Shown here in pieces: positions 1,356-22,233 of a stretch of 23,120 nucleotides of DNA. Both the position numbers and the translations under genes were made by a program. Within the stretch, counting starts at the first letter, position 1. Every line of letters starts with the position of its first letter. The notes beneath the pieces were generated by a model, which ran no database searches, had not been told where the DNA came from, and worked only from the letters and a program-made list of their open reading frames with translations. This DNA is from an uncultured Clostridia bacterium (GTDB taxonomy: Bacteria; Bacillota; Clostridia; Christensenellales; Aristaeellaceae). The stretch is from assembly GCA_937907055.1 (NCBI GenBank), contig CALCTW010000114.1:1-23120 (forward strand), read 5' to 3'.

Positions 1356-2798
1356 TCACAGTTTTGCAACGGAAGATTCAATGCGCTTCATAGTTTCTTC
1401 CCTACCAAGCAGGTAAGCGATCTCAAAAGCGCCGCCGGGCGTGGATTCCAGACCGCTGATGGCGATACGGAGCGGCCAGAGAACAGCACCGTTCTTCTTT
1501 CCGCTCTCGGCAATCGCGGCCATAACAACATCATGGATGTTCTGTTCATTCCAATCGGTGATGTTCTCGAGAATGGGCTTAATGAAGAGCAGATTTTCCT
1601 TCGCCACCTCAGGATTGGTCTTCATCTTCTTGTGCGTATACAGATCATTGCTGAATTCCGGCATTTCCGCAAGGAAAGCTACCATATCCGGAATGTTCTT
1701 AAAAACATCCGTACGGCTCTGCATCAGTTCGGCCAGACGCTTATAGTCGATATTTTTACCGGCAAGAACTTTGTCGAACCATGGCGTAGCCATTTCAAGA
1801 TACTTCTCAGCCGGCAATTCACTGATGTAATGCGCGTTGAACCAGGTAAGCTTGCTGACATCAAAGATACCGGGTGCCTTATTGATATGCTTTACGTCAA
1901 ACGCTTCCACAAGCTCTTCAAGCGTAAAGAATTCGCGGTCATCGCCCGGATTCCAGCCAACCAGCGCAAGATAGTTGATCAGTGCTTCCTTCAGATATCC
2001 CTTTTCAACATAGTCGCTGTAATAGGCATCACCGTCACGTTTACTCAGCTTGTGCTGGGCATCGCGCATAACAGGCGGCATATGGATATACTGGGGGATC
2101 TGCCAGCCGAAAGCATCATAAAGCAGATTGTACTTGGGAGTAGAAGAAAGATACTCCATTCCGCGCATGACATAGGTGATATTCATCAGATGGTCGTCAA
2201 TGACATTCGCGAAATTGTATGTAGGCATGCCGTCTGCCTTGATCAGGATCATGTCATCCAGCGTATCGTTCGGGAAGGAAAGCTCACCGAACACCAGATC
2301 GTTATAAACAGTGGTACCGGTCGTGGGGCAGTTCATGCGGATAACATAGGGGATACCCGCGTCCAGCTTTGCCTGCACTTCTTCTTTGGAAAGATTCATG
2401 CAATGCTTGTCATACTTGAATACTTCGCCCTTCGCCTCACAGGCGGCACGGCGTTCATCCAGTTCTTCCTTAGTGCAGAAGCAGTAATAAGCATGTCCGG
2501 TCTCGACCAGCTTCTGCGCGTAGGGAAGATAGAGCGCTTTACGCTCGCTCTGAATATAAGGTCCGTACTCACCGCCGACATCCGGTCCTTCATCCCAATC
2601 AATACCGCAGCCGCGGAGGGTATCATAAATGACCTGTGTAGCGCCTTCAACAAAGCGCTCCTGATCGGTATCTTCGATACGGAGAATGAATTTACCGTTA
2701 TTCTTCTTGGCGAACAGGTAGCCATAGAGGGCGCTACGAAGACCGCCAAGATGCATGAACCCCGTGGGAGAGGGGGCAAATCTGGTTCTGACTTCCAT
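1356..2798 (-). CDS. gltX: Glutamate--tRNA ligase
   Basis: 480 aa. It has a class I HIGH-type motif (PSPTGFMHLGG) and a KMSKS-type motif (HKLSKRDG), with overall GluRS-like sequence. The RBS is AGGAGTA. It lies 21 nt downstream of glnS. Stop is TGA. Confidence 0.92.
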   Translation of the reverse strand: MEVRTRFAPSPTGFMHLGGLRSALYGYLFAKKNNGKFILRIEDTDQERFVEGATQVIYDTLRGCGIDWDEGPDVGGEYGPYIQSERKALYLPYAQKLVETGHAYYCFCTKEELDERRAACEAKGEVFKYDKHCMNLSKEEVQAKLDAGIPYVIRMNCPTTGTTVYNDLVFGELSFPNDTLDDMILIKADGMPTYNFANVIDDHLMNITYVMRGMEYLSSTPKYNLLYDAFGWQIPQYIHMPPVMRDAQHKLSKRDGDAYYSDYVEKGYLKEALINYLALVGWNPGDDREFFTLEELVEAFDVKHINKAPGIFDVSKLTWFNAHYISELPAEKYLEMATPWFDKVLAGKNIDYKRLAELMQSRTDVFKNIPDMVAFLAEMPEFSNDLYTHKKMKTNPEVAKENLLFIKPILENITDWNEQNIHDVVMAAIAESGKKNGAVLWPLRIAISGLESTPGGAFEIAYLLGREETMKRIESSVAKL

Positions 2799-2819
2799 AG
2801 GATACTCCTTTAAAGATGA

Positions 2820-4517
2820 TTATTGAGGCTTGTAGCTGTCTTTCAGGCTGACAACACGGTTGTAGACAGCAGTTTCGGAAGAACTGTCCTTATCCTTGCA
2901 GAAATAACCGGTGCGAAGGAACTGGAAGGTGGTGCCGACAGGGGATTCCGCCAGCACATGCTCGCCATAGCCATGCGCAACATGCAGAGAATCGGGATTA
3001 AGGCGGCTGATAAAGTCCTTCTTTTCGGCTGCTTCTTCGCCTTCGGTCTCTTCGCTTTCCGCGGTGTCATCATTGAGCAGGGGCTCATAAAGGCGGCCTT
3101 CAACCTTGCAGCAGTTATTGGCATCCACCCAGTGGAGCGTACCCTTTACCTTGCGATCGGCACCCGGAGTGCCGCTGCGGCTGTCAAGATCAACAGAGCA
3201 TTCAAGATGATCGATGGTACCGTCAGCGTTCTTGACAACTTTCTCACACTTGATGATATAAGCACCCTTCAGACGAACCTCGCCATCGGGCTTAAGACGG
3301 AAGAACTTCTTGGGAGCTTCTTCCATGAAATCTTCCTTTTCGATCCAGATCTCATTGCTGATGGTAACCTTGCGGCTGCCCATTTCAGGATGATCGGGAT
3401 GATTCTCCATTTCAAGCGTATCAACAAAACCTTCGGGCCAGTTGGTCAGCACCACCTTCAGCGGATCCAGCACAGCCATGGCACGAGCGGCCTTGTCGCC
3501 CAGATCTTCACGGACACAATGTTCCAGCATCGCGTAATCCACAGTGCTGTCCGCCTTAGAGAGGCCGACAAGTTCAATAAAGGAGCGGATCGCGGCGGGA
3601 GTAAATCCGCGGCGGCGCATTGCGCACAGCGTGGGCATACGGGGATCATCCCACCCGGAGACATAGCCTTCCTCAACCAGACGGCGGAGGTAACGCTTGC
3701 TCATGATCGTACGGGTAATATTCAGACGGGCAAATTCGATCTGACGGGGACCATGATAACCTTCTTTGGCAGTACGGAACCCCGCGTTCTCAACCACCCA
3801 GTCGTACAGCGGACGATGTGCTTCGAACTCGAGGCTGCACAGAGAATGGGTGATCCCTTCGAGCGCGTCGCTGATGGGATGCGCGAAATCGTACATGGGG
3901 TAGATGCACCAAGTATCGCCGGTGCGATGATGATGCTTGTACAGGATACGATACATGGCAGGGTCACGCATATTCATATTGGGGCTTGCCATATCGATCT
4001 TCGCACGCAGGATCATCTTTCCCTCGGGGAACTCGCCCTTGCGCATACGGCGGAAAAGATCAAGGCTTTCTTCCGCGGGACGATCACGCCAGGGGCTGTT
4101 CTTGCCGGGCGTTGTCAAAGTGCCGCGATATTCGCGCATCTCATCCTGAGAAAGCTCATCCACATAAGCCAAACCGCGCTTGATAAAATCTTCAGCGATC
4201 TCATAGATCTTCTCGTAATATTCGCTGGCGTAATACATACCGCCGTTCCAGTTGAAACCAAGCCATTTGATATCTTCCTGAATACCATCCACATATTCAG
4301 TATCTTCTTTGGAAGGATTGGTATCATCAAAACGGAGATTGCATAATCCGCCGTATTTTTCAGCAGTACCAAAGTCTGTTATAAGCGCTTTGCAATGCCC
4401 GATATGCAGATATCCGTTCGGTTCAGGAGGAAAACGGGTGTGGATGCTGTTGCACCATCCGCTTTCAAGATCTTTATCGATAAAATCCCAAATAAAGTTC
4501 GTACGTTCGGTTTCCAT
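2820..4517 (-). CDS. glnS: Glutamine--tRNA ligase
   Basis: 565 aa. It has PEPNGYLHIGH (HIGH) and IMSKR (KMSKS) motifs and a GlnRS-like C-terminal anticodon-binding region. AGGAGG RBS (plus-strand cctcct at 4525-4530). Stop is TAA. Confidence 0.9.
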   Translation of the reverse strand: METERTNFIWDFIDKDLESGWCNSIHTRFPPEPNGYLHIGHCKALITDFGTAEKYGGLCNLRFDDTNPSKEDTEYVDGIQEDIKWLGFNWNGGMYYASEYYEKIYEIAEDFIKRGLAYVDELSQDEMREYRGTLTTPGKNSPWRDRPAEESLDLFRRMRKGEFPEGKMILRAKIDMASPNMNMRDPAMYRILYKHHHRTGDTWCIYPMYDFAHPISDALEGITHSLCSLEFEAHRPLYDWVVENAGFRTAKEGYHGPRQIEFARLNITRTIMSKRYLRRLVEEGYVSGWDDPRMPTLCAMRRRGFTPAAIRSFIELVGLSKADSTVDYAMLEHCVREDLGDKAARAMAVLDPLKVVLTNWPEGFVDTLEMENHPDHPEMGSRKVTISNEIWIEKEDFMEEAPKKFFRLKPDGEVRLKGAYIIKCEKVVKNADGTIDHLECSVDLDSRSGTPGADRKVKGTLHWVDANNCCKVEGRLYEPLLNDDTAESEETEGEEAAEKKDFISRLNPDSLHVAHGYGEHVLAESPVGTTFQFLRTGYFCKDKDSSSETAVYNRVVSLKDSYKPQ

Positions 4518-4548
4518 AAGGATTCCTCCTTTTGATATATACTTTTAT

Positions 4549-4577
4549 ATTATAAAACATACAAAACACATTTACAA
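4549..4577 (-). promoter_or_regulatory. Putative sigma-A promoter for glnS-gltX
   Basis: The minus strand reads TTGTAA-N17-TATAAT. The predicted leader is only about 25 nt, so there is no room for a T-box. Confidence 0.5.
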
Positions 4578-4630
4578 GATAAACCTAATCCATTAGTTGA
4601 TTAATTCGATCATCAAAGATAAAAATATAA

Positions 4631-4668
4631 TAAAAAAGCACCGGCGCCTAAAAAGCAGACGCCGATGC
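4631..4668 (-). terminator. Rho-independent terminator after the zinc-ribbon gene
   Basis: GC-rich stem: 4638-4646 (gcaccggcg) pairs with 4660-4668 (cgccgatgc, one G-U pair). On the minus strand it is followed by a T6 run. Confidence 0.75.
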
Positions 4669-4688
4669 CTGTTTAAATCGTGAACCGA

Positions 4689-4985
4689 TTAATACTGGGG
4701 ACGATTCTTCTGATAGCAATCGCGGCAGTAGACGGGACGATCTCCGCGGGGCTGGAAGGGCACCTGAGTGGTGCAACCGCAGCCATCGCAAACAACTTCA
4801 TACATCTGACGTTCGCCACGAGGAGCAGCGCCACCGTTGTTCTGAGCACGACGGGCGGCACGGCAAGCGGGGCAACGGCCGGGCTCGTTCTGGAAGCCCT
4901 TTTCGGCGTAGAAAGCCTGCTCGTTAGCGGTGAAGGTGAATTCCTGGCCGCATTCACGGCAAGTGAGGGTCTTGTCCTGATACAT
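4689..4985 (-). CDS. Double zinc-ribbon protein (N-terminal CxxC...CxxC zinc ribbon plus C-terminal CxxC-x17-CxxC domain), function unknown
   Basis: 98 aa: CRECG...CPACR and CDGCG-x17-CRDCY. AGGAGGA RBS. Codon usage is very biased toward high GC3, which suggests high expression. Stop is TAA. Confidence 0.8.
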   Translation of the reverse strand: MYQDKTLTCRECGQEFTFTANEQAFYAEKGFQNEPGRCPACRAARRAQNNGGAAPRGERQMYEVVCDGCGCTTQVPFQPRGDRPVYCRDCYQKNRPQY

Positions 4986-5120
4986 AACTGTATCCTCCTA
5001 AATAATTATCCAAACCGAATTGATACGATTAGCTGTTTCCATGGGCCCTTCATCAGTCAGATTGGACGATCACTAGATCCGGGAAGTACACCTACGTCGC
5101 TTAGGCTTGGTACATAACGC

Positions 5121-5148
5121 ATTATAGCACAACTTCAGCCGATTGCAA
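5121..5148 (-). promoter_or_regulatory. Near-consensus sigma-A promoter for the zinc-ribbon gene, giving a ~125-nt leader
   Basis: The minus strand reads TTGCAA-N16-(TGc)TATAAT. Confidence 0.55.
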
Positions 5149-5320
5149 TATTTTTTGATTACGAATCTTCAAATTTTCTTATCAAAAAAAGGACATACGA
5201 ACGTTCGGATTTTTAAGGCTTTAACATGATGGATGTTTGCGGTCATGATAGAAATGTTCAAGTATGAACATGTAATGGTCGCAAAAACGATGTCATCAGG
5301 TACTGAATAAGAAGAAACAG

Positions 5321-5349
5321 TTGAAATAAGCGAACTTCTATGTTAATAT
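5321..5349 (+). promoter_or_regulatory. Putative sigma-A promoter for plsX
   Basis: TTGAAA-N17-TAATAT with a TGn extension (tgtTAATAT), about 35 nt upstream of the start codon. Confidence 0.5.
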
Positions 5350-5387
5350 GAAACAGTATTCCTGATAAGGACAGAAGGGGAATGAAC

Positions 5388-7481: not shown

Positions 7482-10400
7482 AGTTAAAAAAGATCGACAT
7501 TCATGGCTTCAAATCCTTCGCGGATAAAACAGAGATCATTTTTAACGAAGGCATTACAGGCATCGTCGGTCCGAACGGCAGCGGAAAGAGCAATATCGGC
7601 GACGCTGTGCGTTGGGTTCTCGGCGAACAAAGCGCGCGTGTTCTGCGCGGTTCAAAGATGGAGGACATCATCTTCGGCGGAACAGAGAAGCGCAAAGCTG
7701 CCACATATTGCGAAGTTACACTCACGTTTGACAACGAAGATCTGAAGCTTAAGAGCACATTTACGGAAGTCTCCGTTACCAGACGCGTATATCGGAACGG
7801 CGACAGTGAATATTACCTGAATGGCACCGCCTGCCGACTGAGAGACATTCTTGAGCTATTCCGTGATACAGGTATCGGCCGTGAAGGTTACTCCCTGATC
7901 GGTCAGGGACGAATCGACGAGATCCTATCTGTTAAGAGTGAAGACAGACGTCAGATCTTCGAAGAAGCCGCCGGTGTAATGACATTCCGTGTTCGCAAGG
8001 AAGAAGCCGAAAGAAAACTGAACCGCACCGAGGAAAACCTCAGCCGTGTGTCTGATATCTTAGAAGAACTGGGAAATCGTATCGAGCCCCTCTCCAAACA
8101 GGCTGAAACCGCTAAAGAATATCTCAGTCTGTTTGCTGAACTTAAAAGCCTCGAGATCAACATCTACCTTGTTCGCCATGATAAGTTAGAAGAGAAGATC
8201 ACAAGTCTAAAGACTTCTGTTGAGACACTGAATGATATTTTGATCCAGCACGAAGCACTGCTTAATCAGACGACTGAGAATCGTCAGAAGCTGGAAGAAG
8301 CGCTGCAGACCTTGGAAGAAGAGCTGGCACTTTGTCGCAGTGATTATATGGGCGAAACAGAAGCCTATCATAACGCGCAGAGCGAGCTTGAACTCGAAAA
8401 GCAAAAGTTGCATACCGAGATCGAGCGTTTTGACCGCACAAAACAGGAGATCGAGATTGCCGAAGAAAGAAAGAATGAGATCTATTCACTCTTTTCCAAA
8501 GGCAGCACAGCAGAATCAGAAAGCAAAGACGCGCTTGAAAAAGCAGAACAGGAACTGCGTCAGGCTCAGGAAAAGCTGAATGCTTCCGTGGAGGAAGCCG
8601 ATCGTCTTGAAGTCACGCTTGACGAACACAAGAGCGCGATCCTGAATGCTGTAAACCTCCTGAGCGATTTTAAAAATCGTCAGGCCCGCCAGCAGACGAT
8701 GCGCGACCAGATGAAAAAACGTCTGGATGAGATCGAGCAGAGCCAGTCTGAACTGAACAGCAAACAGACAGAATTAGAAATCTCTTTGGAGAACGCGATC
8801 CGTCAAAGCGAGGAAGTCAACAAAAGAACCGAGCAATTCCGGCAGGATGCCGCGAGCGCGGAGGGAAAGCTTCGTCTGGCGATTGAGGATGGCAATAAGG
8901 CGCAGGAGACGATCCATCAACTGAATCTGAAGCTTCAGGCCGACAGAAGCCGTCTCAAGCTCATGGAAGAGATGAGCCGGGAAATGGAAGGTTACAGTCA
9001 AAGTGTTAGAAAAGCTTTGGCTTATGCTGAAAATGATCCTTCTGTCTACGGTGTTGTTGCAAGGCTGATCAAGGTGCCGCGCGAGCTGGAAACGGCGATC
9101 GACATGGCGCTGGGTGCACAGCTTCAGAACATCGTTACAAGAGACGAAGAAGCCGCCAAGCGAATGATCGATCATCTGCGCATCAATAAACTCGGCCGCG
9201 CTACTTTCCTGCCGATGAGCACAGTGCGATCCCGCACGTTATCAAATGAAGAGCGTAAGCTGCTCACTATGCCGGGCTGTATCGGCGTTGCCAGCGATCT
9301 CATCAATTATGATGATAAGTTCCGCGGGATCATCGAAAACCTGCTCGGCAGAACGGTGATCGCAAAAGACCTGAATTCCGGTATTCCCATTATGCGTGCC
9401 GGAAGACATGCTTTCCGCCTTGTTACATTGGAAGGCGATGTCATGTCAAGCGGAGGTTCCATGACAGGCGGTACAACACAGAGCCGCGCTGTAAGCCTCC
9501 TTGGACGTGAACGCGAAAGGGAAGAACTGCAGCATACTGTTGAGAATAATTCCACTCGTCTTGAACAGCTTCGCAAGCAACTGGAACAGTTTCAGGATAA
9601 AGTGGAAAAACTGCAGCACGAATCCGCTCTGGCGAGAGAACAGGTACATCAGGAAGAAATCGCTGTTGCTCGTGAGCAGGAACGCGTATACAATGCCCGT
9701 GCTGAACTGGAAGCGCATAACGAGCGTATCCGTCAGACGAAACTTGCGATCGAGCAATTGACAGACAGTATCGAGGAGATCGATCATGATCTTCGCGAAG
9801 CTGAGGCGGAGACCGGTAAGGTGGCTATCGACCGTGAGGCGATGGATATGAAAACGACATCGCTGCAGGCTGCTTTAAAAGATGCCAGAGAAAAGGTCGA
9901 AAACAGGCGTACGCTCCTTTCTGACGCTCAGCAGAATTATACAGAGATCCGCCATGCCTTGGATGTGCTGCAGCGTGATAAAGAGCGTCAGGACAAAGAA
10001 CTTTCACAGATCGACAGTCAGATCGCCGCTTTGAAGACGCAGTTGGAGAGCAAGGAAACGCAGATCAAAGTTCTTGAAGAAGATATTCTGGAACGAGAAA
10101 GCGATCTCCATTCTCGTGAGTCGATTGTTAATGATAAACGGGAGAAAGTCGACTTGCTCGACAAACAGCGTCTGTCGATGACTCAGGAACAGCGTGAGAG
10201 CGTTGAAAAATCAGAAAATATTCATAAGCAATACGATGAAGATCAGCTGCACCTTCACAAGACTGAATTGAACCTCAGCAAAGCCGAAAGCGAACTGAAA
10301 GTCATGAGTGATCATATCTTCAATGAATATGAACTCACTTATGCTGACTGCGCGGAATTCCGTATTGAAAACTTCGCGCTCACAGAAAGCGAACGAAACG

Positions 10401-11032
10401 CTTCTTCCATTCGCAGCCGTATCCGCGAATTGGGCCCGATCAATGTCTCCGCGATTGAAGACTATGCCAACACAAAGGATCGTTTTGATCAGATGACTGC
10501 GCAGAAGGACGACCTGCTGAAGGCTAAGGACGATCTGCAGAATCTGATCACACGCCTGCTTGGGCAGATGGAACGTCAGTTTGTCGAAGAATTTGACAAG
10601 CTCAAGGTCTTCTTCAGTGAAACATTCACCCGTCTGTTTGGCGGCGGTACCGCAGAGTTGAGACTGACCGATCCGCAGGACGCGCTGAACTGCGGTATCG
10701 AGATCATTGCGCAGCCGCCGGGAAAGAAGCTCCAGCTGCTGTCTCTGCTCTCCGGCGGTGAACGCGCCCTGACCGCGATCGCGATCCTCTTCGCAATGCT
10801 GAAGTTAAAGCCGACTCCGTTCTGTATCCTTGATGAGATCGAAGCTGCTCTCGATGAAGCCAATATCGGTTATTATGCCGATTACATGGCGGAATTCTCA
10901 AAGGGAACACAGTTTGTCGTTGTTACCCATCGTAAGGGTACCATGGAACGCTGCGATTCACTCTTCGGCGTTGCTATGCAGGAGAAAGGCATCAGCCGCA
11001 TGGTGAGCGTTGACTTGAAGGACTACGAATGA
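7478..11032 (+). CDS. smc: Chromosome segregation protein SMC
   Basis: 1184 aa. Walker A is GPNGSGKSN. There are long coiled-coil regions around a central hinge. Signature motif LSGGE and Walker B FCILDEIEAALD are present. Stop is TGA. Confidence 0.95.
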   Translation: MKLKKIDIHGFKSFADKTEIIFNEGITGIVGPNGSGKSNIGDAVRWVLGEQSARVLRGSKMEDIIFGGTEKRKAATYCEVTLTFDNEDLKLKSTFTEVSVTRRVYRNGDSEYYLNGTACRLRDILELFRDTGIGREGYSLIGQGRIDEILSVKSEDRRQIFEEAAGVMTFRVRKEEAERKLNRTEENLSRVSDILEELGNRIEPLSKQAETAKEYLSLFAELKSLEINIYLVRHDKLEEKITSLKTSVETLNDILIQHEALLNQTTENRQKLEEALQTLEEELALCRSDYMGETEAYHNAQSELELEKQKLHTEIERFDRTKQEIEIAEERKNEIYSLFSKGSTAESESKDALEKAEQELRQAQEKLNASVEEADRLEVTLDEHKSAILNAVNLLSDFKNRQARQQTMRDQMKKRLDEIEQSQSELNSKQTELEISLENAIRQSEEVNKRTEQFRQDAASAEGKLRLAIEDGNKAQETIHQLNLKLQADRSRLKLMEEMSREMEGYSQSVRKALAYAENDPSVYGVVARLIKVPRELETAIDMALGAQLQNIVTRDEEAAKRMIDHLRINKLGRATFLPMSTVRSRTLSNEERKLLTMPGCIGVASDLINYDDKFRGIIENLLGRTVIAKDLNSGIPIMRAGRHAFRLVTLEGDVMSSGGSMTGGTTQSRAVSLLGREREREELQHTVENNSTRLEQLRKQLEQFQDKVEKLQHESALAREQVHQEEIAVAREQERVYNARAELEAHNERIRQTKLAIEQLTDSIEEIDHDLREAEAETGKVAIDREAMDMKTTSLQAALKDAREKVENRRTLLSDAQQNYTEIRHALDVLQRDKERQDKELSQIDSQIAALKTQLESKETQIKVLEEDILERESDLHSRESIVNDKREKVDLLDKQRLSMTQEQRESVEKSENIHKQYDEDQLHLHKTELNLSKAESELKVMSDHIFNEYELTYADCAEFRIENFALTESERNASSIRSRIRELGPINVSAIEDYANTKDRFDQMTAQKDDLLKAKDDLQNLITRLLGQMERQFVEEFDKLKVFFSETFTRLFGGGTAELRLTDPQDALNCGIEIIAQPPGKKLQLLSLLSGGERALTAIAILFAMLKLKPTPFCILDEIEAALDEANIGYYADYMAEFSKGTQFVVVTHRKGTMERCDSLFGVAMQEKGISRMVSVDLKDYE

Positions 11033-11069
11033 TAGAATACAGTATGTTTAATGAAAGTGAGGCGAGTTT

Positions 11070-11963
11070 ATGGGTTTCTTCTCAAAATTAAAAGAAAAAC
11101 TGACCAAAACCCGCGGAAATCTGAACGACAAGGTGGACGATCTTGTCGTCAATACGCGAAAGATCGATGATGATTTCTATGACGAGTTGACCGATATCCT
11201 TATTCTTTCCGATATCGGTATGTCTGTCACAGAAGATATTATCGAAAAACTTAAGAAGAGTGTCAAATCCGAACGCGTCAAGAACGCGGAACAGGCCAAA
11301 GAGATGCTGAAGGAACTGCTGATCGATGAGATGACGATCGAAAAGAAAGAACCGAAGTATCCTTCCGTGATCATGGTTGTCGGTGTCAACGGCGTCGGCA
11401 AGACTACCACTATCGGTAAGCTGGCGCTCCGCTTCAAAGAGCAGGGCAAGTCCGTAATGCTGGCCGCGGCTGATACATTCCGTGCTGCCGCTGATGAGCA
11501 GTTGACTGTCTGGAGCGAACGCGCGGCAGTGCCGCTGATCCATGGTGAAGGGACAGATCCCGCTGCCGTCGTTTATGATGGTGTTCAGGCGGCAAAAGCA
11601 CGCGGAACAGATATCCTCATTGTGGATACTGCCGGTCGTTTGCATAACAAAAAGAATCTGATGGATGAGCTGGCGAAGATGCGCCGCATTATCGACCGCG
11701 AGTATCCGCAGGCCGAAATGCGCTGTCTGCTGGTACTGGATGCCACGACCGGTCAGAATGGTTTGCAGCAGGCAAAAGCCTTCAAAGAGTCCACAGATAT
11801 TAACGGTATCATCCTCACAAAGCTGGATGGAACAGCAAAGGGCGGTATTGCGGTCGCGATTCGCCGTGAACTGAACCTGCCTGTTGAGTTCATCGGTGTT
11901 GGCGAAGGCATTGACGATCTGCAGCCCTTCGATCCGAAGGAGTTCATCGAAGCGCTGTTCTGA
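11070..11963 (+). CDS. ftsY: Signal recognition particle receptor FtsY
   Basis: 297 aa. SRP-GTPase motifs GVNGVGKTTT, DTAGR and TKLDG are present. Stop is TGA. Confidence 0.92.
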   Translation: MGFFSKLKEKLTKTRGNLNDKVDDLVVNTRKIDDDFYDELTDILILSDIGMSVTEDIIEKLKKSVKSERVKNAEQAKEMLKELLIDEMTIEKKEPKYPSVIMVVGVNGVGKTTTIGKLALRFKEQGKSVMLAAADTFRAAADEQLTVWSERAAVPLIHGEGTDPAAVVYDGVQAAKARGTDILIVDTAGRLHNKKNLMDELAKMRRIIDREYPQAEMRCLLVLDATTGQNGLQQAKAFKESTDINGIILTKLDGTAKGGIAVAIRRELNLPVEFIGVGEGIDDLQPFDPKEFIEALF

Positions 11964-12112: not shown

Positions 12113-13534
12113 TTATTTCAAGATCGAGATTGCGTCGCAGATCCGTTTTTCAAGTGCTTCCTTACCGTACTTATCAACTTCAGCCTTATTCTTTTCACCG
12201 TGGGTAAGGCATCCGGCACCACCGATACAACCGCCGATACAGGCCATGCCCTCGATGAAGTTCGCCTGCAGTTTTCCGGCTTTCTTCTGAAGAAGCGCGA
12301 TCCTGCACTGTTCAATTCCGTCACAGACAGCGGGTTTCACAACAAACTCAATATTCTGCTCTTTGATCGCTTCGGCAACAGCATCCGACAGACCGCCGCT
12401 TCTCGCAAAGATGCGGCCAAAGTAGGAGGCATTATCTAACGCGGTTTCCTCAAGTTGAGCAATATCGATCTCCCGGCTGTCGATCAGAGCCTGCAGTTCT
12501 TCAAATGTCAATACAGCATCCACATAAGGCTTCACTGTCTCTTTCTGCATTTCCATTTTCTTCGCGATACAGGGACCGATAAACACTGTTTTGCAGTTTG
12601 CATCATGTTCCTTGATGTACTTTGCGATCACAGCCATGGGGGAAAGGTTGTGAGAAACAAAATGCTTCAGATCGGGGAATGTTTTCTCGATATAGCTTAC
12701 AAAAGCCGGGCAGCAGGAGCTTGTCAGGAATCCTTTTTCAGCCAGTTCCCTGGCTTCTTCATTGGAGACCATATCAGCACCCAAGGCAGCTTCGATCACT
12801 GTATGGAAGCCAAGCTGTTTGATTCCGGAAACGACCTGACCAAGCTTTGCGTAAGTAAACTGACTGGAAATAGACGGCGCTACGATCGCATAGACCTTTT
12901 GACTGGGGTTCGAAGTCTGGTCCTTCAGCATGTCGATCACATTCAGGATATAGGATTTCTCGCTGATCGCGCCGAATGGACACGTATATACGCACGCGCC
13001 GCAGGAGATGCAGGTATTATTGTCAATACATGCTTCCTTTTCATCGCCCATTGAGATCGCCTTTACCTTACAGGCCGTTTCACACGGACGCTTGTAATTA
13101 TGGATTGCGCTGTAAGGGCATACCCTTGAGCAGGCGCCACACTCTTTGCATTTTGCCTTATCGATATGCGCAACGTGATTATCATCGAATGTGATCGCGC
13201 CGAAACGGCACGCATCCTCACAGCGGTGAGCGAGACAGCCGCGGCATGCATTTGTGACCTCATATCCGCCCATCGGACATTCGTCGCAGGCAATATCGAT
13301 TACTTCGATCACGTTCGGATTCTGCTTATCGCCGCCCATCGCAAGCTTGACCCGCTCAGCGATGATCGCGCGTTCCTTGTAAACACAGCAACGCATCGAG
13401 GGTTTTTTCCCCGGAACGATAAGCTTTGGAATGTCAAGGAGATTATCCTGCAGAGTATCTGCCCATGCCTGTTTTGACACTTCACGCAGCACTTTATATT
13501 TCAAATGCTGTACTTTGGTATCGAACTTGTGCAT
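12113..13534 (-). CDS. Monomeric [FeFe]-hydrogenase, group B type
   Basis: 473 aa with several ferredoxin-like Cys clusters. H-cluster motifs are TSSCCPAF, GPCIAKKME and EGMACIGGCIGGAGC. RBS is GGAGGAAAT. Stop is TAA. Confidence 0.85.
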   Translation of the reverse strand: MHKFDTKVQHLKYKVLREVSKQAWADTLQDNLLDIPKLIVPGKKPSMRCCVYKERAIIAERVKLAMGGDKQNPNVIEVIDIACDECPMGGYEVTNACRGCLAHRCEDACRFGAITFDDNHVAHIDKAKCKECGACSRVCPYSAIHNYKRPCETACKVKAISMGDEKEACIDNNTCISCGACVYTCPFGAISEKSYILNVIDMLKDQTSNPSQKVYAIVAPSISSQFTYAKLGQVVSGIKQLGFHTVIEAALGADMVSNEEARELAEKGFLTSSCCPAFVSYIEKTFPDLKHFVSHNLSPMAVIAKYIKEHDANCKTVFIGPCIAKKMEMQKETVKPYVDAVLTFEELQALIDSREIDIAQLEETALDNASYFGRIFARSGGLSDAVAEAIKEQNIEFVVKPAVCDGIEQCRIALLQKKAGKLQANFIEGMACIGGCIGGAGCLTHGEKNKAEVDKYGKEALEKRICDAISILK

Positions 13535-13543
13535 ATTTCCTCC

Positions 13544-14716
13544 TTAGAAGTAACTGACCTTGATTCTCTTTCCCATCTTGCGCAGACAGTTTGACAGTTC
13601 TTCAACCAGGGTCATCTTAATGTTGAAAGTGATCGGCAGATCAGGATTCTGATGAGCCGGATTGATCGCGCGGCCTACATAGAAGTTAATATCCGTCGCT
13701 TCGTCGAAAAGCATCCGGCAGATCATCGAAGCGCCATCCTGACCAAACTCCCATTTCTCATGCAGTTTGTTTTCCGTGATAAAATCCTTCGCATACTCAA
13801 CGACCCGGTTAACGGTAATAACACCTTCTGTAACAAGATCAACGCCTTCAATACGGGCAATGGGCGGGACATCGGAACGAACGAACCTCAAATCCGCCTC
13901 CACACGCTTATTTAAGTACCTCGCTGCCACAGAGGCCGTTGTACCGCCGCAGACGATATGTTTGCCTTCCTTCGAGAAGAAAAGGGACATCATGCGATTA
14001 TTATCATCACGCTCCCTTGGCGGACCAAACAGAAGGTTCATCGGTACGCGCTTACGCATCTTGATCACGCATGCTGTCGCGTCATCACCCGGATTATGAC
14101 CGTACAGGTTATCAACTTCCGAGATCAGCATGGAGGACAGCACTTTTGCGGAATAACCGCCCGCATTCGCGGATTCCATGAAGGAAATGATCTCTTCACG
14201 GCGCCAACCGAAATTATAGGCGATGCCGATTCCGGCATGAGGACAGCCATCGCTCATCGCAATAAATGTATCATCTTCCTGCAATCTGATTAAGGAATGA
14301 TAGATCTTTTTGCCGCCGATGTTCAGTTCGGTTTTGGGATACTCATAGTTACGCCCATTCCTCAGCATGATCGTCAGTGGGTTGTCATACTGGATCAGTT
14401 CCATCTCACGGTTCTTTACAAGATTGAGAATCGTGAAGGTAGAATAGGCAACACCGCGAACGGAACAGATCGGCAGAGTCTGCGCGATCGTCTCCACACA
14501 ATCTGTGATAGACAAGCCTTCCGCCATCATTGTAGAAATGATCTTACTGGTCAAGGTGGACAGTATACTGGCTTTTACACCGCTTCCCAGGCCATCCGCA
14601 AGTACAACGATCGTTGAATCATCATCCGGCTGAACAACGTCAACATGATCTCCGCAAAGTTGTTCCCCGGCATGATTGATGCTCTTATAGCCGATCTCGG
14701 CACAGATATCATTCAT
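13544..14716 (-). CDS. PP2C/SpoIIE-family serine phosphatase
   Basis: 390 aa. It has the SpoIIE/PP2C-type motif CGDHV...VLADGLGSGVKAS and a later SDGCPHAG. The start overlaps the hydS stop by 8 nt (ATGAATGA). Stop is TAA. Confidence 0.8.
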   Translation of the reverse strand: MNDICAEIGYKSINHAGEQLCGDHVDVVQPDDDSTIVVLADGLGSGVKASILSTLTSKIISTMMAEGLSITDCVETIAQTLPICSVRGVAYSTFTILNLVKNREMELIQYDNPLTIMLRNGRNYEYPKTELNIGGKKIYHSLIRLQEDDTFIAMSDGCPHAGIGIAYNFGWRREEIISFMESANAGGYSAKVLSSMLISEVDNLYGHNPGDDATACVIKMRKRVPMNLLFGPPRERDDNNRMMSLFFSKEGKHIVCGGTTASVAARYLNKRVEADLRFVRSDVPPIARIEGVDLVTEGVITVNRVVEYAKDFITENKLHEKWEFGQDGASMICRMLFDEATDINFYVGRAINPAHQNPDLPITFNIKMTLVEELSNCLRKMGKRIKVSYF

Positions 14717-16385
14717 TGGAGATGCTCTCCTTCAGCTTTGTCAGTGTGATCTTGGTCTCAGCGGCGGTTTCACCAAGCAGAGAAGCGATCTCCTGCACGA
14801 TACGCATCTGCTTATCCACTACACGGTCTGCTGTCTCGATCGTCTGCGCGCGCTGCTTTTCGCGCTTTTCATGTTCAGTTTCTTCTTCCGTCACATCGCG
14901 CATAAGGCAGAGAAGCATATGATACGTGCTGTCGTACACATAGCTTTCTTCGACGTACTTATCATACTCAGCCAGATAAGTACGGCGATTCTTGATGCCG
15001 CGTTTTGTTTCCAATACTTCTACAAAGGGCTTTGGATCGAGAATACGAACGACCTGATCCCCAAGAACATCGGAAGCATAGCGGATGTTCAGAATCTTCT
15101 GCGCCGCTGGATTGATCTGCTGAACTTCAAGCGCGTCATTGACAACGATGATCGCGTTGGGGGAGTTGGAAACGATGCAATCAGAGAAGCTCTCTGCCTT
15201 ATCCTTCAGGTAGGGCAGACACATGGAGATTTCCGCTTTGCCCTGATAGATCGCGATCGCCTTTTCACGGCAGGTATTGTATCCGCAGGAACCGCAATTC
15301 AGTTCATCTACAGGTCCGATCTTACCCATTTGCTTCAGGATCGCCTTGATCTCCTTATCGGTCGGCATCTTACTGTTACGATCGATCGGCTCAAAACGTT
15401 TCCTGAGATCCATAGAATCAGGCTGGGAAACTTCAAAGTCTTCGTTACCGGCATAAGTAGCTACAGATCGATAGGCAGTAACAGGAGAATTCTTGTACTT
15501 CTCCATTACAGGACCGCCGATACAACTGCCCGTACAGGCTGACATCTCAATAAAGCACTTATGAATGTTGCCCTGTTCGATCTCCTTAAGCGCCGCGATA
15601 CAGTTTTCAACACCATCAACTGCCATATACGTGTAGCCGGGCGCGTTCTGCGACATCGTCTTAAGAACACCGCCGGTCGTGGGGAAGAAGCGCGCACGGC
15701 TCTTTTCTTCAGAATCCATGTCCGGTTCCAGGGTTACATTCTCGGCTTTCAGCCAGTTCGTCAGTTCTTCGTAAGTCAACACAGCATCAACGAGACCGCT
15801 GTACTGCTTTGCTTCATCCTTCTTTGATACACAGGGGCCGATGAAAACGACCTTTGCTTCAGGATGAGCCTTTTTGATCTGCGCGCAATGTGCCTGCATG
15901 GGGGAAAGCACATCCGCCAGACAAGGAACAAGTCCGGGGAAATATTTCTGTACCAGAAGGTTAACAGAATGACAGCAGGTGGAGATCACGATGTCTTCCA
16001 ATCCTTTGGAAAGCATCTTCTCATATTCAGTCTTTACGATCGTAGCGCCGACCGCTGTTTCCTGCACATCCGTGAAGCCAAGTTTTTTCAGAGCCTTCGT
16101 CATCCCATTTATGCCAATACCGCTGTAGTTGGCAATAAAGGAAGGCGCAAGACTTACATAGACCGGAATACCCGACTGAATAAACACTCTTACCTTTTCA
16201 GTCTCGTCAACGATCTGCTTCGCGTTTTGCGGACAGACTACGAAGCATTGACCGCACAGAATACATTCGTCTCCGATAATATGAGCCTGATTCGCGGAAA
16301 AACGAATCGATTTTACCGGACAATGACGAATGCATTTATAACAATTCTTGCAATTGGACTTTTTAAGCGTCATGCATTCCGACAT
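14709..16385 (-). CDS. Sensory-type [FeFe]-hydrogenase homologue with C-terminal PAS domain (HydS/HfsB-like)
   Basis: It has two N-terminal CxxCxxCxxxCP ferredoxin motifs. The H-domain motifs are variant: STCCHS, GPCVSKKDE and EMSACTGSCIGGP. An extra CGSCGYNTC...C motif follows, then a PAS-like segment. I prefer start ATG 16383-16385 (GGGGGA lies 6 nt upstream). ATG 16371-16373 (ATGA overlap) is the alternative. Stop is TGA. Confidence 0.8.
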   Translation of the reverse strand: MSECMTLKKSNCKNCYKCIRHCPVKSIRFSANQAHIIGDECILCGQCFVVCPQNAKQIVDETEKVRVFIQSGIPVYVSLAPSFIANYSGIGINGMTKALKKLGFTDVQETAVGATIVKTEYEKMLSKGLEDIVISTCCHSVNLLVQKYFPGLVPCLADVLSPMQAHCAQIKKAHPEAKVVFIGPCVSKKDEAKQYSGLVDAVLTYEELTNWLKAENVTLEPDMDSEEKSRARFFPTTGGVLKTMSQNAPGYTYMAVDGVENCIAALKEIEQGNIHKCFIEMSACTGSCIGGPVMEKYKNSPVTAYRSVATYAGNEDFEVSQPDSMDLRKRFEPIDRNSKMPTDKEIKAILKQMGKIGPVDELNCGSCGYNTCREKAIAIYQGKAEISMCLPYLKDKAESFSDCIVSNSPNAIIVVNDALEVQQINPAAQKILNIRYASDVLGDQVVRILDPKPFVEVLETKRGIKNRRTYLAEYDKYVEESYVYDSTYHMLLCLMRDVTEEETEHEKREKQRAQTIETADRVVDKQMRIVQEIASLLGETAAETKITLTKLKESISNE

Positions 16386-16654
16386 ACCCAATCCCCCTTT
16401 GCTTTTTCGATCGCAGGTATGATCGTTTTATCCCAGAATTCACTGAACCCTTCAGGCGTAATCCCGGTGTAAGTATCACGGCCGACGATCAGTGTAACAC
16501 CGAGGCGGTTGCACTGACCGGTGCAGAACGCGCCGGTCAGTACCACCTCGTCACTCAGATGATTCTGGTTGATTTTTTCCTGAATCAATTCCACGATTCT
16601 TTCGGAACCCTTCAGGTGGCAGGAGCTGCCCACACAAATCTCAATGCACAGCAT
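16370..16654 (-). CDS. Thioredoxin-like [2Fe-2S] ferredoxin domain protein (94 aa)
   Basis: The Cys pattern C-x4-C ... C-x3-C (CVGSSCH ... FCTGQCN) is typical of NuoE/HydC-type 2Fe-2S domains. Stop is TGA. Confidence 0.7.
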   Translation of the reverse strand: MLCIEICVGSSCHLKGSERIVELIQEKINQNHLSDEVVLTGAFCTGQCNRLGVTLIVGRDTYTGITPEGFSEFWDKTIIPAIEKAKGDWVCRNA

Positions 16655-16656
16655 AC

Positions 16657-16896
16657 TTAAACCCTTGCCTTAATCTCTTTATTGAAAAAGTCGCGAACTG
16701 TTTCGGGAGTAACGGAATAGAGCTGATCATCAACAGTCACGCAGACCCCCAACTGGCATTTTCCCATGCAGAAGGTACCGCCAAGCTCCACCTTGTCATT
16801 CAGTCCGGCTTCGTCAAGCAGATACTGAAGCCCTTCCACGACCTGACGGGAGCCCTTGATATGGCAGGAAGATCCGATACATACGGTCACTTTCAT
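16657..16896 (-). CDS. Thioredoxin-like [2Fe-2S] ferredoxin domain protein (79 aa), paralogue of 16370..16654
   Basis: CIGSSCH ... FCMGKCQ. I prefer ATG 16894-16896 (MKVTV...). The ORF-track start at 16911 is a GTG overlapping the upstream stop. Stop is TAA. Confidence 0.7.
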   Translation of the reverse strand: MKVTVCIGSSCHIKGSRQVVEGLQYLLDEAGLNDKVELGGTFCMGKCQLGVCVTVDDQLYSVTPETVRDFFNKEIKARV

Positions 16897-16907
16897 TTTT
16901 TTTTTCC

Positions 16908-17657
16908 TCACTCGTACTCGACAACATTTACCCAGCTGGTCAGGAATTCACGTTCTTTCTCATTGCCCTTTACAGACTGAGAAGCCGCGACGATCGGCAT
17001 CCACTTCTGGATATAACGCTTCTCCGTACCGCTCTTCTTGCAGAAGAGATTCAGATATTCTTCCGCCATGTCGATCTCGCCATTCAGCCAGAACAGCAGA
17101 TAGGTGCGGGCTACGTCAGCAGAAGCGTTACCCTGCGTAGCATGAGACCAATCCAGAATGTAAGGGACACCGTCATCGGAAATGATGATGTTGGATGGGT
17201 TGAAATCTCCGTGGCAAAGCTTGTTGTGCTTCGGCATACTGTCAAGACGTGTATGAAGTTCATAGCGGGTCGTGATATCAAAGCTCGTCTGAGAGATCTT
17301 GCGCTGCATCTTGTCCTTCAGTTTGGTCAGCATGGGGCAGGTCTTTGATTGTACCTCGATCTGCAGATCAACAAACAGATTCAGATATTCATCCTTTTTA
17401 TCAGGATTCTCCTGCATCAGCTGAGCAAGTGTCTTGCCCTTGATATAATCCGCAACAATCGACCACTTGCCGTCAATCAGCGTTACCTGGTGGATCTTCG
17501 GAATAGAAAGACCGGTTTCTTCTACACGCGCCTGGTTCAGCGCTTCATTCAGAACTTCCGCCTTGGAGTAGAAATCGTCAAAAACCTTCATGGTAAAATT
17601 GCCATCACGGTAGATCGTCTTATGATTTCTGACTGCAATAATTCTGTCAAGTTTCAT
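16908..17657 (-). CDS. APH/choline-kinase-fold protein kinase-like protein
   Basis: 249 aa. Catalytic-loop motif is HGDFNPSNIII, followed by ILDW (the DxD-type metal site). AGGAGGAAAA RBS. It starts 12 nt after the adhE stop. Stop is TGA. Confidence 0.7.
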   Translation of the reverse strand: MKLDRIIAVRNHKTIYRDGNFTMKVFDDFYSKAEVLNEALNQARVEETGLSIPKIHQVTLIDGKWSIVADYIKGKTLAQLMQENPDKKDEYLNLFVDLQIEVQSKTCPMLTKLKDKMQRKISQTSFDITTRYELHTRLDSMPKHNKLCHGDFNPSNIIISDDGVPYILDWSHATQGNASADVARTYLLFWLNGEIDMAEEYLNLFCKKSGTEKRYIQKWMPIVAASQSVKGNEKEREFLTSWVNVVEYE

Positions 17658-21208: not shown

Positions 21209-21394
21209 TTAAAATAACTCTCTTTTTACACGGCAAAGCTCCGTGATAAATGCTTTGTCCAGATCTGACAGCATATAGTCTGCCTTATGGACGATCACAT
21301 CTTTATAGATTTTTTTGTTCTCCTTGCATTTACGATGAACAAGCCCATACCGCTACAGAACATCCGGCGGGCATACGGAGACCCACATAAATGT
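21209..21394 (-). pseudogene. In-frame continuation of the LysR gene beyond its first TAG, containing a second TAG at 21353-21355 and ending at TAA 21209-21211
   Basis: Same frame as 21395..22129. Translation: TFMWVSVCPPDVL-TAG-RYGLVHRKCKENKKIYKDVIVHKADYMLSDLDKAFITELCRVKRELF-TAA. It restores a normal LysR length of 306 codons. Confidence 0.6.
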
Positions 21395-22129
21395 CTATGG
21401 ATTCTTTGCCAGCATTTCAAACTGAATTGAACGTTCAAATATAAAGATCTGTTTTTCGACTTCAGGAAGCTCCTCCTTCTTGATTTCCGCCAGCGGAAGG
21501 GAAGGAACATAGGGGTTCGCATGCACAATCTCGATCTTATCGCTAAGGTCAGAATAATGGATCTCCGGCAGTTCCGCAAGAGGTGACTTTTCGTTCACGA
21601 GCAGTACATACTGAAACTCGTTCAGTAATTCATAAGCAAGCCCCTTGCTATCCAGCCATTCTTTGTAATACTTGTCGTATTGCGCCGCGTAGCGGATGAT
21701 ACCCAGTTTATAATCAGACTCTAAAATATTTCGGATCGTATGAACCGAGTTTGTTTCCTTGTAGGTCAGTTCATAACCTCCGTCCTTCGGAAGCTTTGTA
21801 ACGAAAGAAGAAAAAGCTTCACTGATATAACTGGCGAGAGGCACGGAGATAGAGAATTTCTTCTTTTCGGAATAATCCTTCCGGAACATATTTTCCACAG
21901 CATCGACCTGTTTAAGGATCTTTTCCGCATATTTCAAAAATTCTGCGCCTTCCGGTGTAGGCTTCATCCCGCGCGTGGAACGCGTGAAGATACTGACCCC
22001 CAGTGAGGCCTCGAGATCCTTGATGCATCGGCTGAGATTTGGCTGATCCATATATAGCTTTTCTGCAGCCTTGTTGATCGATCCATTCGCGGCGACCGCT
22101 AAAGCATATCGGAGATAAAGCAGGTTCAT
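21395..22129 (-). CDS. LysR-family transcriptional regulator. It is 244 aa as read under code 11 and ends at a TAG, so it appears truncated.
   Basis: Start is ATG 22127-22129 (MNLLYLRYALAV...) with AGGAGGA 7 nt upstream. The N-terminal HTH is SINKAAEKLYMDQPNLSRCIKDLE. The ORF-track start at 22183 has no RBS. Confidence 0.8.
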   Translation of the reverse strand: MNLLYLRYALAVAANGSINKAAEKLYMDQPNLSRCIKDLEASLGVSIFTRSTRGMKPTPEGAEFLKYAEKILKQVDAVENMFRKDYSEKKKFSISVPLASYISEAFSSFVTKLPKDGGYELTYKETNSVHTIRNILESDYKLGIIRYAAQYDKYYKEWLDSKGLAYELLNEFQYVLLVNEKSPLAELPEIHYSDLSDKIEIVHANPYVPSLPLAEIKKEELPEVEKQIFIFERSIQFEMLAKNP

Positions 22130-22204
22130 TATATGTCCTCCTTTCGGATATTCTGCATAAATGTACATTTCATATTCATGCACCGTGCATACAGAGACAC
22201 ATAT

Positions 22205-22233
22205 ATTATATCAGCATTTTTCCCTGTTGCCAA
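22205..22233 (-). promoter_or_regulatory. Putative sigma-A promoter for the LysR gene
   Basis: The minus strand reads TTGGCA-N17-TATAAT. Confidence 0.5.

Follow-up and report, generated by a model that had tools for sequence, protein, structure and literature searches.

This study concerns a gene for a LysR-type transcriptional regulator (LTTR) that is interrupted by two in-frame TAG codons in an uncultured Clostridia bacterium. The gene lies on the minus strand of an entire 23.1-kb contig of a metagenome-assembled genome (MAG; contig CALCTW010000114.1 of assembly GCA_937907055.1, 23,120 nt), hereafter referred to as the window. Its frame runs from an ATG at 22129-22127 to a TAA at 21211-21209, i.e., over 306 codons plus the stop, and is interrupted by TAG only, namely at codon 245 (the first TAG) and at codon 259 (the second TAG). 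On balance, we lean towards the view that this is a leaky nonsense allele of the 'pseudo-pseudogene' type, read in the standard code, in an ordinary LysR regulator gene. A C-to-T change at the glutamine codon 245 took place before the divergence of the sampled strains of an uncultured Acutalibacteraceae-like species, all available assemblies of which carry it, and a second C-to-T change at the glutamine codon 259 is private to the strain of the window. UAG would mostly terminate translation, giving a 244-aa fragment as the main product, and some full-length or tail-containing product would still be made and would still matter. In the strain of the window, the second TAG would make the complete protein rarer still, and this copy would stand one step nearer to loss. 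Neither a suppressor tRNA nor a change of the genetic code is necessary to account for the LysR TAGs.

The interrupted frame, its homologues and its strains

Between the two TAGs lie 13 codons (TFMWVSVCPPDVL), and another 47 codons lead from the second TAG to the TAA; a peptide of the read-through frame that spans codon 245 is, e.g., AKNPQTFMWVSVCPPDVLQR. The first TAG stands in the context CCA-UAG-A and the second in the context CUG-UAG-C. This layout, with a stop after 244 codons, a second TAG, a TAA and 306 codons in total, had been described in an earlier sequence-only reading of the window and was confirmed. The same reading took the part past the first TAG (codons 246-306, here called the tail) for a real LysR C-terminus, and this was borne out by full-length alignment with intact homologues of ~307 aa at 97-100 % coverage. 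The read-through protein gave 6836 protein matches at E ≤ 1e-10 (best E = 3e-179), and among the best 120 matches, 119 are full-length proteins (~302-340 aa) with a query coverage of 97-100 %. The tail aligns with its homologues column for column, including the invariant F247-M248-W249 as well as the Y-G-L, Y-K-D, and E-L-C motifs, and the tail motif that had been given for clostridial homologues proved to be near the family consensus (...TFMWVSPVPxxLLxRYGLVQRxCxENxKxYKDV...). With TAG written as X, as had been proposed, the tail aligns and both X positions correspond to CAG (Gln) in the closest intact orthologues.

The head of the protein (codons 1-244) contains the PF00126 winged helix-turn-helix (HTH) domain at residues 6-61 (E = 2.2e-19, 69.6 bits, cut-off 26.6), and a profile search of the PDB matched the DNA-binding domains of BenM, CatM, CbnR, and OxyR. 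The PF03466 effector domain scored 13.3 bits against a cut-off of 28. For the structure, an AlphaFold2 (AF2) model of the closest intact orthologue (P0001, numbering offset +18) was used, with a mean predicted local distance difference test score (pLDDT) of 83.8 and values above 90 across the tail; it matched full-length BenM, CcmR, CbnR, OxyR, and CysB over ~313 columns with E about 1e-19. In this model, the tail forms a strand (246-250), a helix (255-261), two further strands (263-266 and 275-282) and the C-terminal helix (289-305). Judged by this structure match, the read-through frame would have the two-subdomain effector domain, and the 244-aa product is without three strands and two helices. 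According to the model, the loss of the 62 residues after codon 244 takes away core elements of the fold and not an appendage, and residues 91-244 would hardly fold alone, because core strands of the LTTR effector fold, as well as its C-terminal helix, come from the tail. The gene resembles known LysR-type regulators (BenM, CbnR, CcmR, OxyR, CysB) in its PF00126 HTH, linker helix, predicted two-subdomain effector domain and length of ~306 aa; it differs from them in an effector domain that is too divergent for PF03466 and in a product that, as encoded up to the first TAG, is short of the fold's 62 C-terminal residues.

CAG is found at both TAG positions in the two closest intact orthologues, L003 and L004, of which L003 is the syntenic orthologue of a sister species (fba-LysR-rex-adhE, 88 % identical); both TAGs are therefore C-to-T changes of glutamine codons. 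The first TAG is present in 8 of 8 assemblies of the clade (the window, L001, L002, L005, L006, L007, L008, and L110), a sample that covers at least 5 samples and 5-6 haplotypes with a pairwise synonymous divergence (dS) of up to 0.17, L110 being the same strain as L005. The second TAG occurs in the window assembly only. Across the family, the position of codon 245 is variable and that of codon 259 hypervariable (top residue 24 %). Three haplotypes are found within 33 nt of the first TAG and there is no diversity trough around it, which indicates that this TAG predates the diversity of the clade; on the same grounds, a recent recombinational spread of the first TAG, considered as an explanation for the selected-looking variation of the tail, was ruled out. 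The window's other private differences in the LysR gene, of which 6 lie in the head and 1 in the tail, are synonymous throughout, and the second TAG is therefore unlikely to be an error. In the search for further strains, a DNA pattern search of metagenomes gave 0 matches, a protein-based metagenome scan reached 62 % identity at best, and the cluster of tail open reading frames (ORFs) contained the four known variants only. A GTDB scan made to reach more of the genome gave no relative closer than 68 %.

The species with the first TAG (L005, L006, L110) and the sister species (L009, L010, L011) co-occur in the same metagenomes (ERZ27247138 / ERR6929694, and ERZ27247132), which leaves room for recombination between the two. 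L009-L011 do not span the LysR gene, and the intact LysR gene of the sister species is known from L003.

Selection on either side of the first TAG

Within the TAG clade, the head has an omega (dN/dS) of 0.08-0.09, and the purifying selection acting on it is almost as strong as in the intact relatives. A dead pseudogene was ruled out by this value, and the earlier view that simple decay is a poor fit is supported both by it and by the sparing of conserved positions in the tail described below. By region, omega amounts to 0.027 in codons 1-90 (0.028 in intact lineages), 0.127 in codons 91-244 (0.081 in intact lineages), and 0.41 in the tail (0.137 in intact lineages); relaxation grows toward the 3' end of the gene. 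The events counted in the TAG clade were 33 synonymous and 9 non-synonymous ones in the head and 5 and 9, respectively, in the tail (Fisher p = 0.006). With branch lengths shared between the partitions, the GY94 model yielded an omega of 0.09 for the head and 0.41 for the tail, and rejected a tail omega equal to that of the head (p = 0.001), of 0.14 (p = 0.007), and of 1 (p = 0.009). Over the two models used, the tail omega is 3-3.5 times that of intact lineages (0.41-0.73 vs 0.14-0.21).

Nevertheless, some selection at the protein level probably still acts on the tail. The nine sites at which its amino acids change lie on positions that are variable in the family (randomisation P = 0.001), the mean frequency of the top residue being 0.51 at these sites vs 0.75 for the region. 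At least 90 % conservation is seen at 24 of the 61 tail positions, and only one of the nine changes, an I/V exchange, is located there. In addition, the density of variable sites is 0.075 per site in the tail and 0.18 in the spacer just past the TAA, i.e., 2.4 times lower in the tail. The initial conclusion that the tail is a neutral relic was revised after the positional test and the spacer comparison.

As for the route by which sequence past the stop may be expressed, near-cognate decoding of UAG by tRNA-Gln, which would restore the ancestral glutamine, is put forward tentatively as the likeliest one. An alternative that we consider rather doubtful is that ribosomes terminate at the first TAG and start again at the invariant ATG248, 6 nt further on, from which a 59-aa ORF is called by gene finders in L001, L005, L007, and L008.

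Several points weigh against a leaky allele. When a free rate multiplier is given to the tail, its omega rises to 0.73, a value that does not differ significantly from neutrality (p = 0.57); the same model rejects a tail omega of 0.2 or below (p = 0.017), and for the intact lineages it gives a tail omega of 0.21 with an equally low tail rate. The case for a tail that is still translated is therefore drawn from the shared-rate model, from the comparison with the spacer and from the positional test, and these cover no more than 14 variable sites in 5-6 recombining haplotypes. Basal read-through of UAG in model bacteria is usually low, and with two serial TAGs hardly any full-length protein would be expected in the strain of the window. 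ATG248 has no Shine-Dalgarno sequence in front of it, and the second TAG would destroy any product restarted there. The TAG-clade strains show no compensatory change in promoter or ribosome binding site (RBS) relative to L003 and L004. Lastly, it is by sequence comparison that expression past the LysR TAGs is suggested.

Alternative explanations and the genetic code

It is conceivable, although we would not expect it, that the gene is a truncated regulator followed by a relic: the first TAG would be fully efficient, the 244-aa fragment (HTH, linker and partial effector domain) alone would be maintained, e.g., as an effector-blind DNA-binding protein, codons 246-306 would be neutral untranslated DNA, and the second TAG would be the first visible decay. 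The 4.5-9 times higher omega of the tail, the unequal event counts of head and tail, and the free-rate estimate that does not reject an omega of 1 all agree with this, and the lack of indels is unremarkable at such low divergence. A second nonsense hit would also be no surprise, as at least one new stop is expected with a chance of 44 % among 14 neutral events in the tail. The absence of a frameshift and of further stops in the tail, which had been advanced as an argument against decay, carries less weight than it seems to; with 14 variable sites in 186 nt it is what one would expect. The recurrence of the same codon is unremarkable too, given that TAG makes up 40-46 % of the possible nonsense outcomes in the LysR gene. 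The observation that the only good terminator lies after the TAA was correct as to layout, but it is simply the ancestral arrangement and thus a weaker argument against decay. What tells against a neutral relic is that the tail changes spare conserved positions (P = 0.001), that the tail evolves ~2.4 times more slowly than the adjacent spacer, that the shared-rate model rejects an omega of 1 (p = 0.009), and that residues 91-244 are constrained (omega 0.127) even though, in the structural model, tail strands are needed to complete both subdomains. Among the options listed in the sequence-only reading, the outcome is closest to a mix of a pseudogene and read-through isoforms, i.e., a nonsense allele that is old instead of very young and that is seemingly partly expressed past the stop.

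Decoding of UAG at the level of the lineage, perhaps including the sister species, appears improbable. It would involve a chromosomal or prophage tRNA-CUA of the Gln or Pyl type, or a weakened or lost release factor 1 (RF1), so that CAG-to-TAG changes would be nearly silent and TAG would be purged from gene ends, as an early stage of the loss of UAG as a stop. Such decoding would fit with both LysR TAGs deriving from CAG, for which our own estimate is ~0.008 for two random nonsense hits and ~0.04 given that both are TAG, as well as with the still selected-looking tail. All three in-frame stops in ~100 kb of lineage sequence are TAG, and the positions they occupy tolerate substitution and have Gln among the residues of homologues; by comparison, 574 orthologue copies from 96 reference loci contain 0 genuine internal stops. 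No TAG terminator is used by 20 genes of the window or by 36 distinct lineage genes (from the window, L003, L005, and L009), all of which end in TAA or TGA, and this is weakly unusual (p about 0.03) against a base rate of 8.9 % of genes in 80 related Acutalibacteraceae/Oscillospirales loci. After calibration with this base rate the absence of TAG terminators was dropped as evidence for recoding, since TAG terminators are likewise lacking in 10 of 32 comparable reference loci. In a more distant relative, the count is 0 of 19. One TAG-ending ORF in L009 turned out to be a spurious antisense ORF. Against lineage-level decoding stands the rarity of the codon. An in-frame TAG is present in 1 of 21 window genes, the other 20 being intact, and in one further gene among 80 aligned non-LysR gene copies of the lineage (89 in all), a lipid kinase gene of the sister species; the residues of the relatives at the three positions are Q, Q, and K, i.e., the kinase TAG replaces AAG (Lys) and not a Gln codon. 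The second LysR TAG is confined to a single MAG, as is the kinase TAG, and by our own rough estimate neutral CAG-to-TAG change should have given roughly ten or more polymorphisms in the sampled genes. The window was chosen for its TAGs, and hence offers no enrichment count. Moreover, the 3-3.5 times more relaxed tail would not be expected under efficient decoding. No tRNA gene was found in the window and only a tRNA-Thr gene in ~80 kb of further lineage sequence; no release-factor gene was found in any fetched locus, no pylTSBCD gene and no methylamine methyltransferase gene with TAG in the window, and no element by an Rfam scan of the window, and the RNA past the first and second TAG is not predicted to form a stable structure (z = -0.8 and -0.4). 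All known reassignments of stop codons in bacteria concern UGA (PMC8629427), and the preferential survival of CAG-to-TAG changes is already known from standard-code Salmonella (PMC9122581), so that the persistence of TAGs derived from CAG is explained by a survivorship bias of this kind without any code change. The suppressor or code change that had been suggested from the sequence thus remains without direct support. An artefact, in which one or both TAGs would be a sequencing, assembly or binning error or a minority variant in the consensus, is highly improbable. The second TAG is indeed found in a single MAG contig and C-to-T is a common type of error, but the window's other private LysR differences, all of them synonymous, carry the signature of real divergence, and the first TAG is present in 8 assemblies from different pipelines (NCBI/ENA MAG, ENA metagenome assemblies, Logan) and at least 5 samples, which rules out the error that had been listed as an option for it.

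The lipid kinase gene mentioned above (L003:4308-5198; GCA_045628485.1, JAZQPK010000166.1) encodes DAGK_cat and YegS_C domains and is split by its in-frame TAG (...KTYEF*ETWLAP...). Three conspecific assemblies (L009-L011) have AAG at this codon and an intact 296-aa protein, and within the family this residue varies (K, Q, N, E, G, R, T). As the TAG replaces a Lys codon and is private to one MAG, the gene was ruled out as a second case of recoding.

Locus features, known parallels and significance

The elements of the LysR locus are compiled in Table 1. The TAG-clade strains share the sequence of the promoter-like site, without any difference, with the intact relatives L003 and L004. Inspection of the locus for hairpins with T-runs showed no terminator-like site after the first TAG. 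If the first TAG terminates, the head is the sole product. In the 5' untranslated region, ~15 nt past the -10 box, a perfect palindrome (ATGCAC-G-GTGCAT, 22178-22190, minus strand) is present that is only partly kept in L003 and L004; judged by its sequence and position, it may be an autoregulatory operator.

Table 1. Features of the LysR locus in the window
Feature	Position	Strand	Remarks
Promoter-like site TTGGCA-17 nt-(TG)TATAAT of the LysR gene	22205..22233	-	11/12 matches plus TG extension
RBS GGAGG, 7 nt upstream of the ATG	22137..22141	-	No variation among the strains or in the intact relatives
LysR head, codons 1-244: winged HTH (residues 6-61), linker helix, ~2/3 of the effector domain	21398..22129	-	
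First TAG, codon 245	21395..21397	-	CAG (Gln) in intact orthologues; TAG throughout the clade
ATG of the family-invariant Met248, 6 nt past the first TAG	21386..21388	-	Candidate restart codon for a 59-aa C-terminal peptide
Second TAG, codon 259	21353..21355	-	CAG (Gln) in every other sequence; private to the window contig
LysR tail, codons 246-306: effector-domain strands and helices	21212..21394	-	From alignment, AF2 model and omega
Ancestral TAA of the full-length frame	21209..21211	-	Same position in all clade members and L003
Intrinsic-terminator-like hairpin with T-run, 3' of the TAA	21112..21134	-	9 pairs, 7 of them G-C

The gene content of the window is that of a Clostridia chromosome (gltX, glnS, plsX, acpP, rnc, smc, ftsY), and the LysR gene is located among adhE, rex, and fba. 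Downstream of rex-adhE, a minus-strand cluster at 12113-17657 comprises an APH-like kinase gene, two tandem genes for thioredoxin-like [2Fe-2S] ferredoxins, and two [FeFe]-hydrogenase-like genes together with a SpoIIE-type phosphatase gene, one of the hydrogenases being HydS-like with an extra Fe-S domain. Every gene of the cluster was matched among 96 related LysR-centred loci (~50 each for the larger genes), and from its predicted products the cluster, which adjoins the LysR gene, looks like a redox-sensing module. The genes gltX and glnS are adjacent on the same strand (1356-4517, minus), and since glnS is present beside gltX, tRNA-Gln is taken to be charged directly in this organism, which bears on any scenario of Gln-type suppression. 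Upstream of plsX, an 865-nt stretch (4517-5382) contains only a 98-aa CxxC zinc-ribbon ORF (4689-4985, minus), which matched nothing in Pfam at E ≤ 1e-5 and nothing in Rfam. By coordinate arithmetic on two independent assemblies, the left end of the window (~1-145), which lies left of a 252-aa ORF at 146-904, and the end of contig k141_170034 (L005/L109) lie within ~1 kb of a common breakpoint, which points to a repeat at this site, e.g., a mobile element, an rRNA operon or a tRNA array. In L108, a more distant relative (MrpD 72 % identical), the gene for Mrp antiporter subunit D (10001-11486) is frameshifted into parts of 327 aa and 175 aa that overlap by 26 nt in different frames.

In-frame stops in conserved genes are widespread in bacteria, are common to related strains and occur in genes with a dN/dS below 1, and a worked example of a TAG orthologous to CAG has been given (Belinky et al. 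2021, PMC7918605). In Salmonella, 68.6 % of read-through pseudogenes carry UAG, with C>T and G>A changes as their main origins; Gln was the residue inserted at UAG in 4 of 6 identified cases, an outcome ascribed to near-cognate tRNA-Gln (Feng et al. 2022, PMC9122581). The first LysR TAG resembles these 'pseudo-pseudogenes' (PMC7918605, PMC9122581) in being orthologous to CAG, common to the strains and located in a gene with dN/dS below 1, and both LysR TAGs are of the type that is commonest there, UAG derived by C>T, at which near-cognate tRNA-Gln usually inserts Gln. Orthology to a sense codon and presence in at least two strains, by which such cases are recognised, are both found for the first TAG; the private second TAG shows the orthology only. 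The LysR gene differs from the described cases in that its first TAG is common to all sampled strains of a clade whose dS reaches 0.17 and in that the strain of the window has two stops 42 nt apart, and it is known here from sequence alone. A further parallel is offered by gut phages with TAG-to-Gln recoding, in which TAG likewise stands at Gln positions of relatives, in an ecosystem, the gut, where tRNA-CUA genes circulate; these phages have TAG in many genes and encode their own suppressor tRNA (Borges et al., bioRxiv 10.1101/2021.08.26.457843). The LysR gene, in contrast, is one chromosomal gene in a housekeeping context, with no tRNA nearby and a relaxed region downstream of the stop. Translational restart after nonsense codons is known from the classical lacI and T4 rIIB systems. 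The LysR gene has an in-frame ATG 6 nt past the stop, without a Shine-Dalgarno sequence, from which a C-terminal fragment could possibly be made; unlike in those systems, its two fragments would have to reassemble one domain, and the second TAG would abolish restart in the strain of the window.

The first LysR TAG thus belongs to an already described phenomenon, and what is unusual is its persistence in every sampled strain of a fairly deep clade and, in one strain, the presence of two serial stops. For annotation, this means that the locus should be treated neither as a simple pseudogene nor as a 244-aa regulator, nor as evidence of an alternative code. It would represent a natural case in which a nonsense allele is kept clade-wide while the gene on either side of the stop stays under selection, whereas large surveys suggest that such alleles are usually shorter-lived. 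The gene may serve as a test case for how much UAG read-through or restart is tolerated or exploited by gut Clostridia, for whether a leaky stop can tune down an autoregulated LysR regulator and, less likely, for whether UAG is generally weak in this lineage. Lineage-level decoding, if true, would give bacteria outside the pyrrolysine system their first UAG reassignment, or their first natural amber suppression throughout a species.

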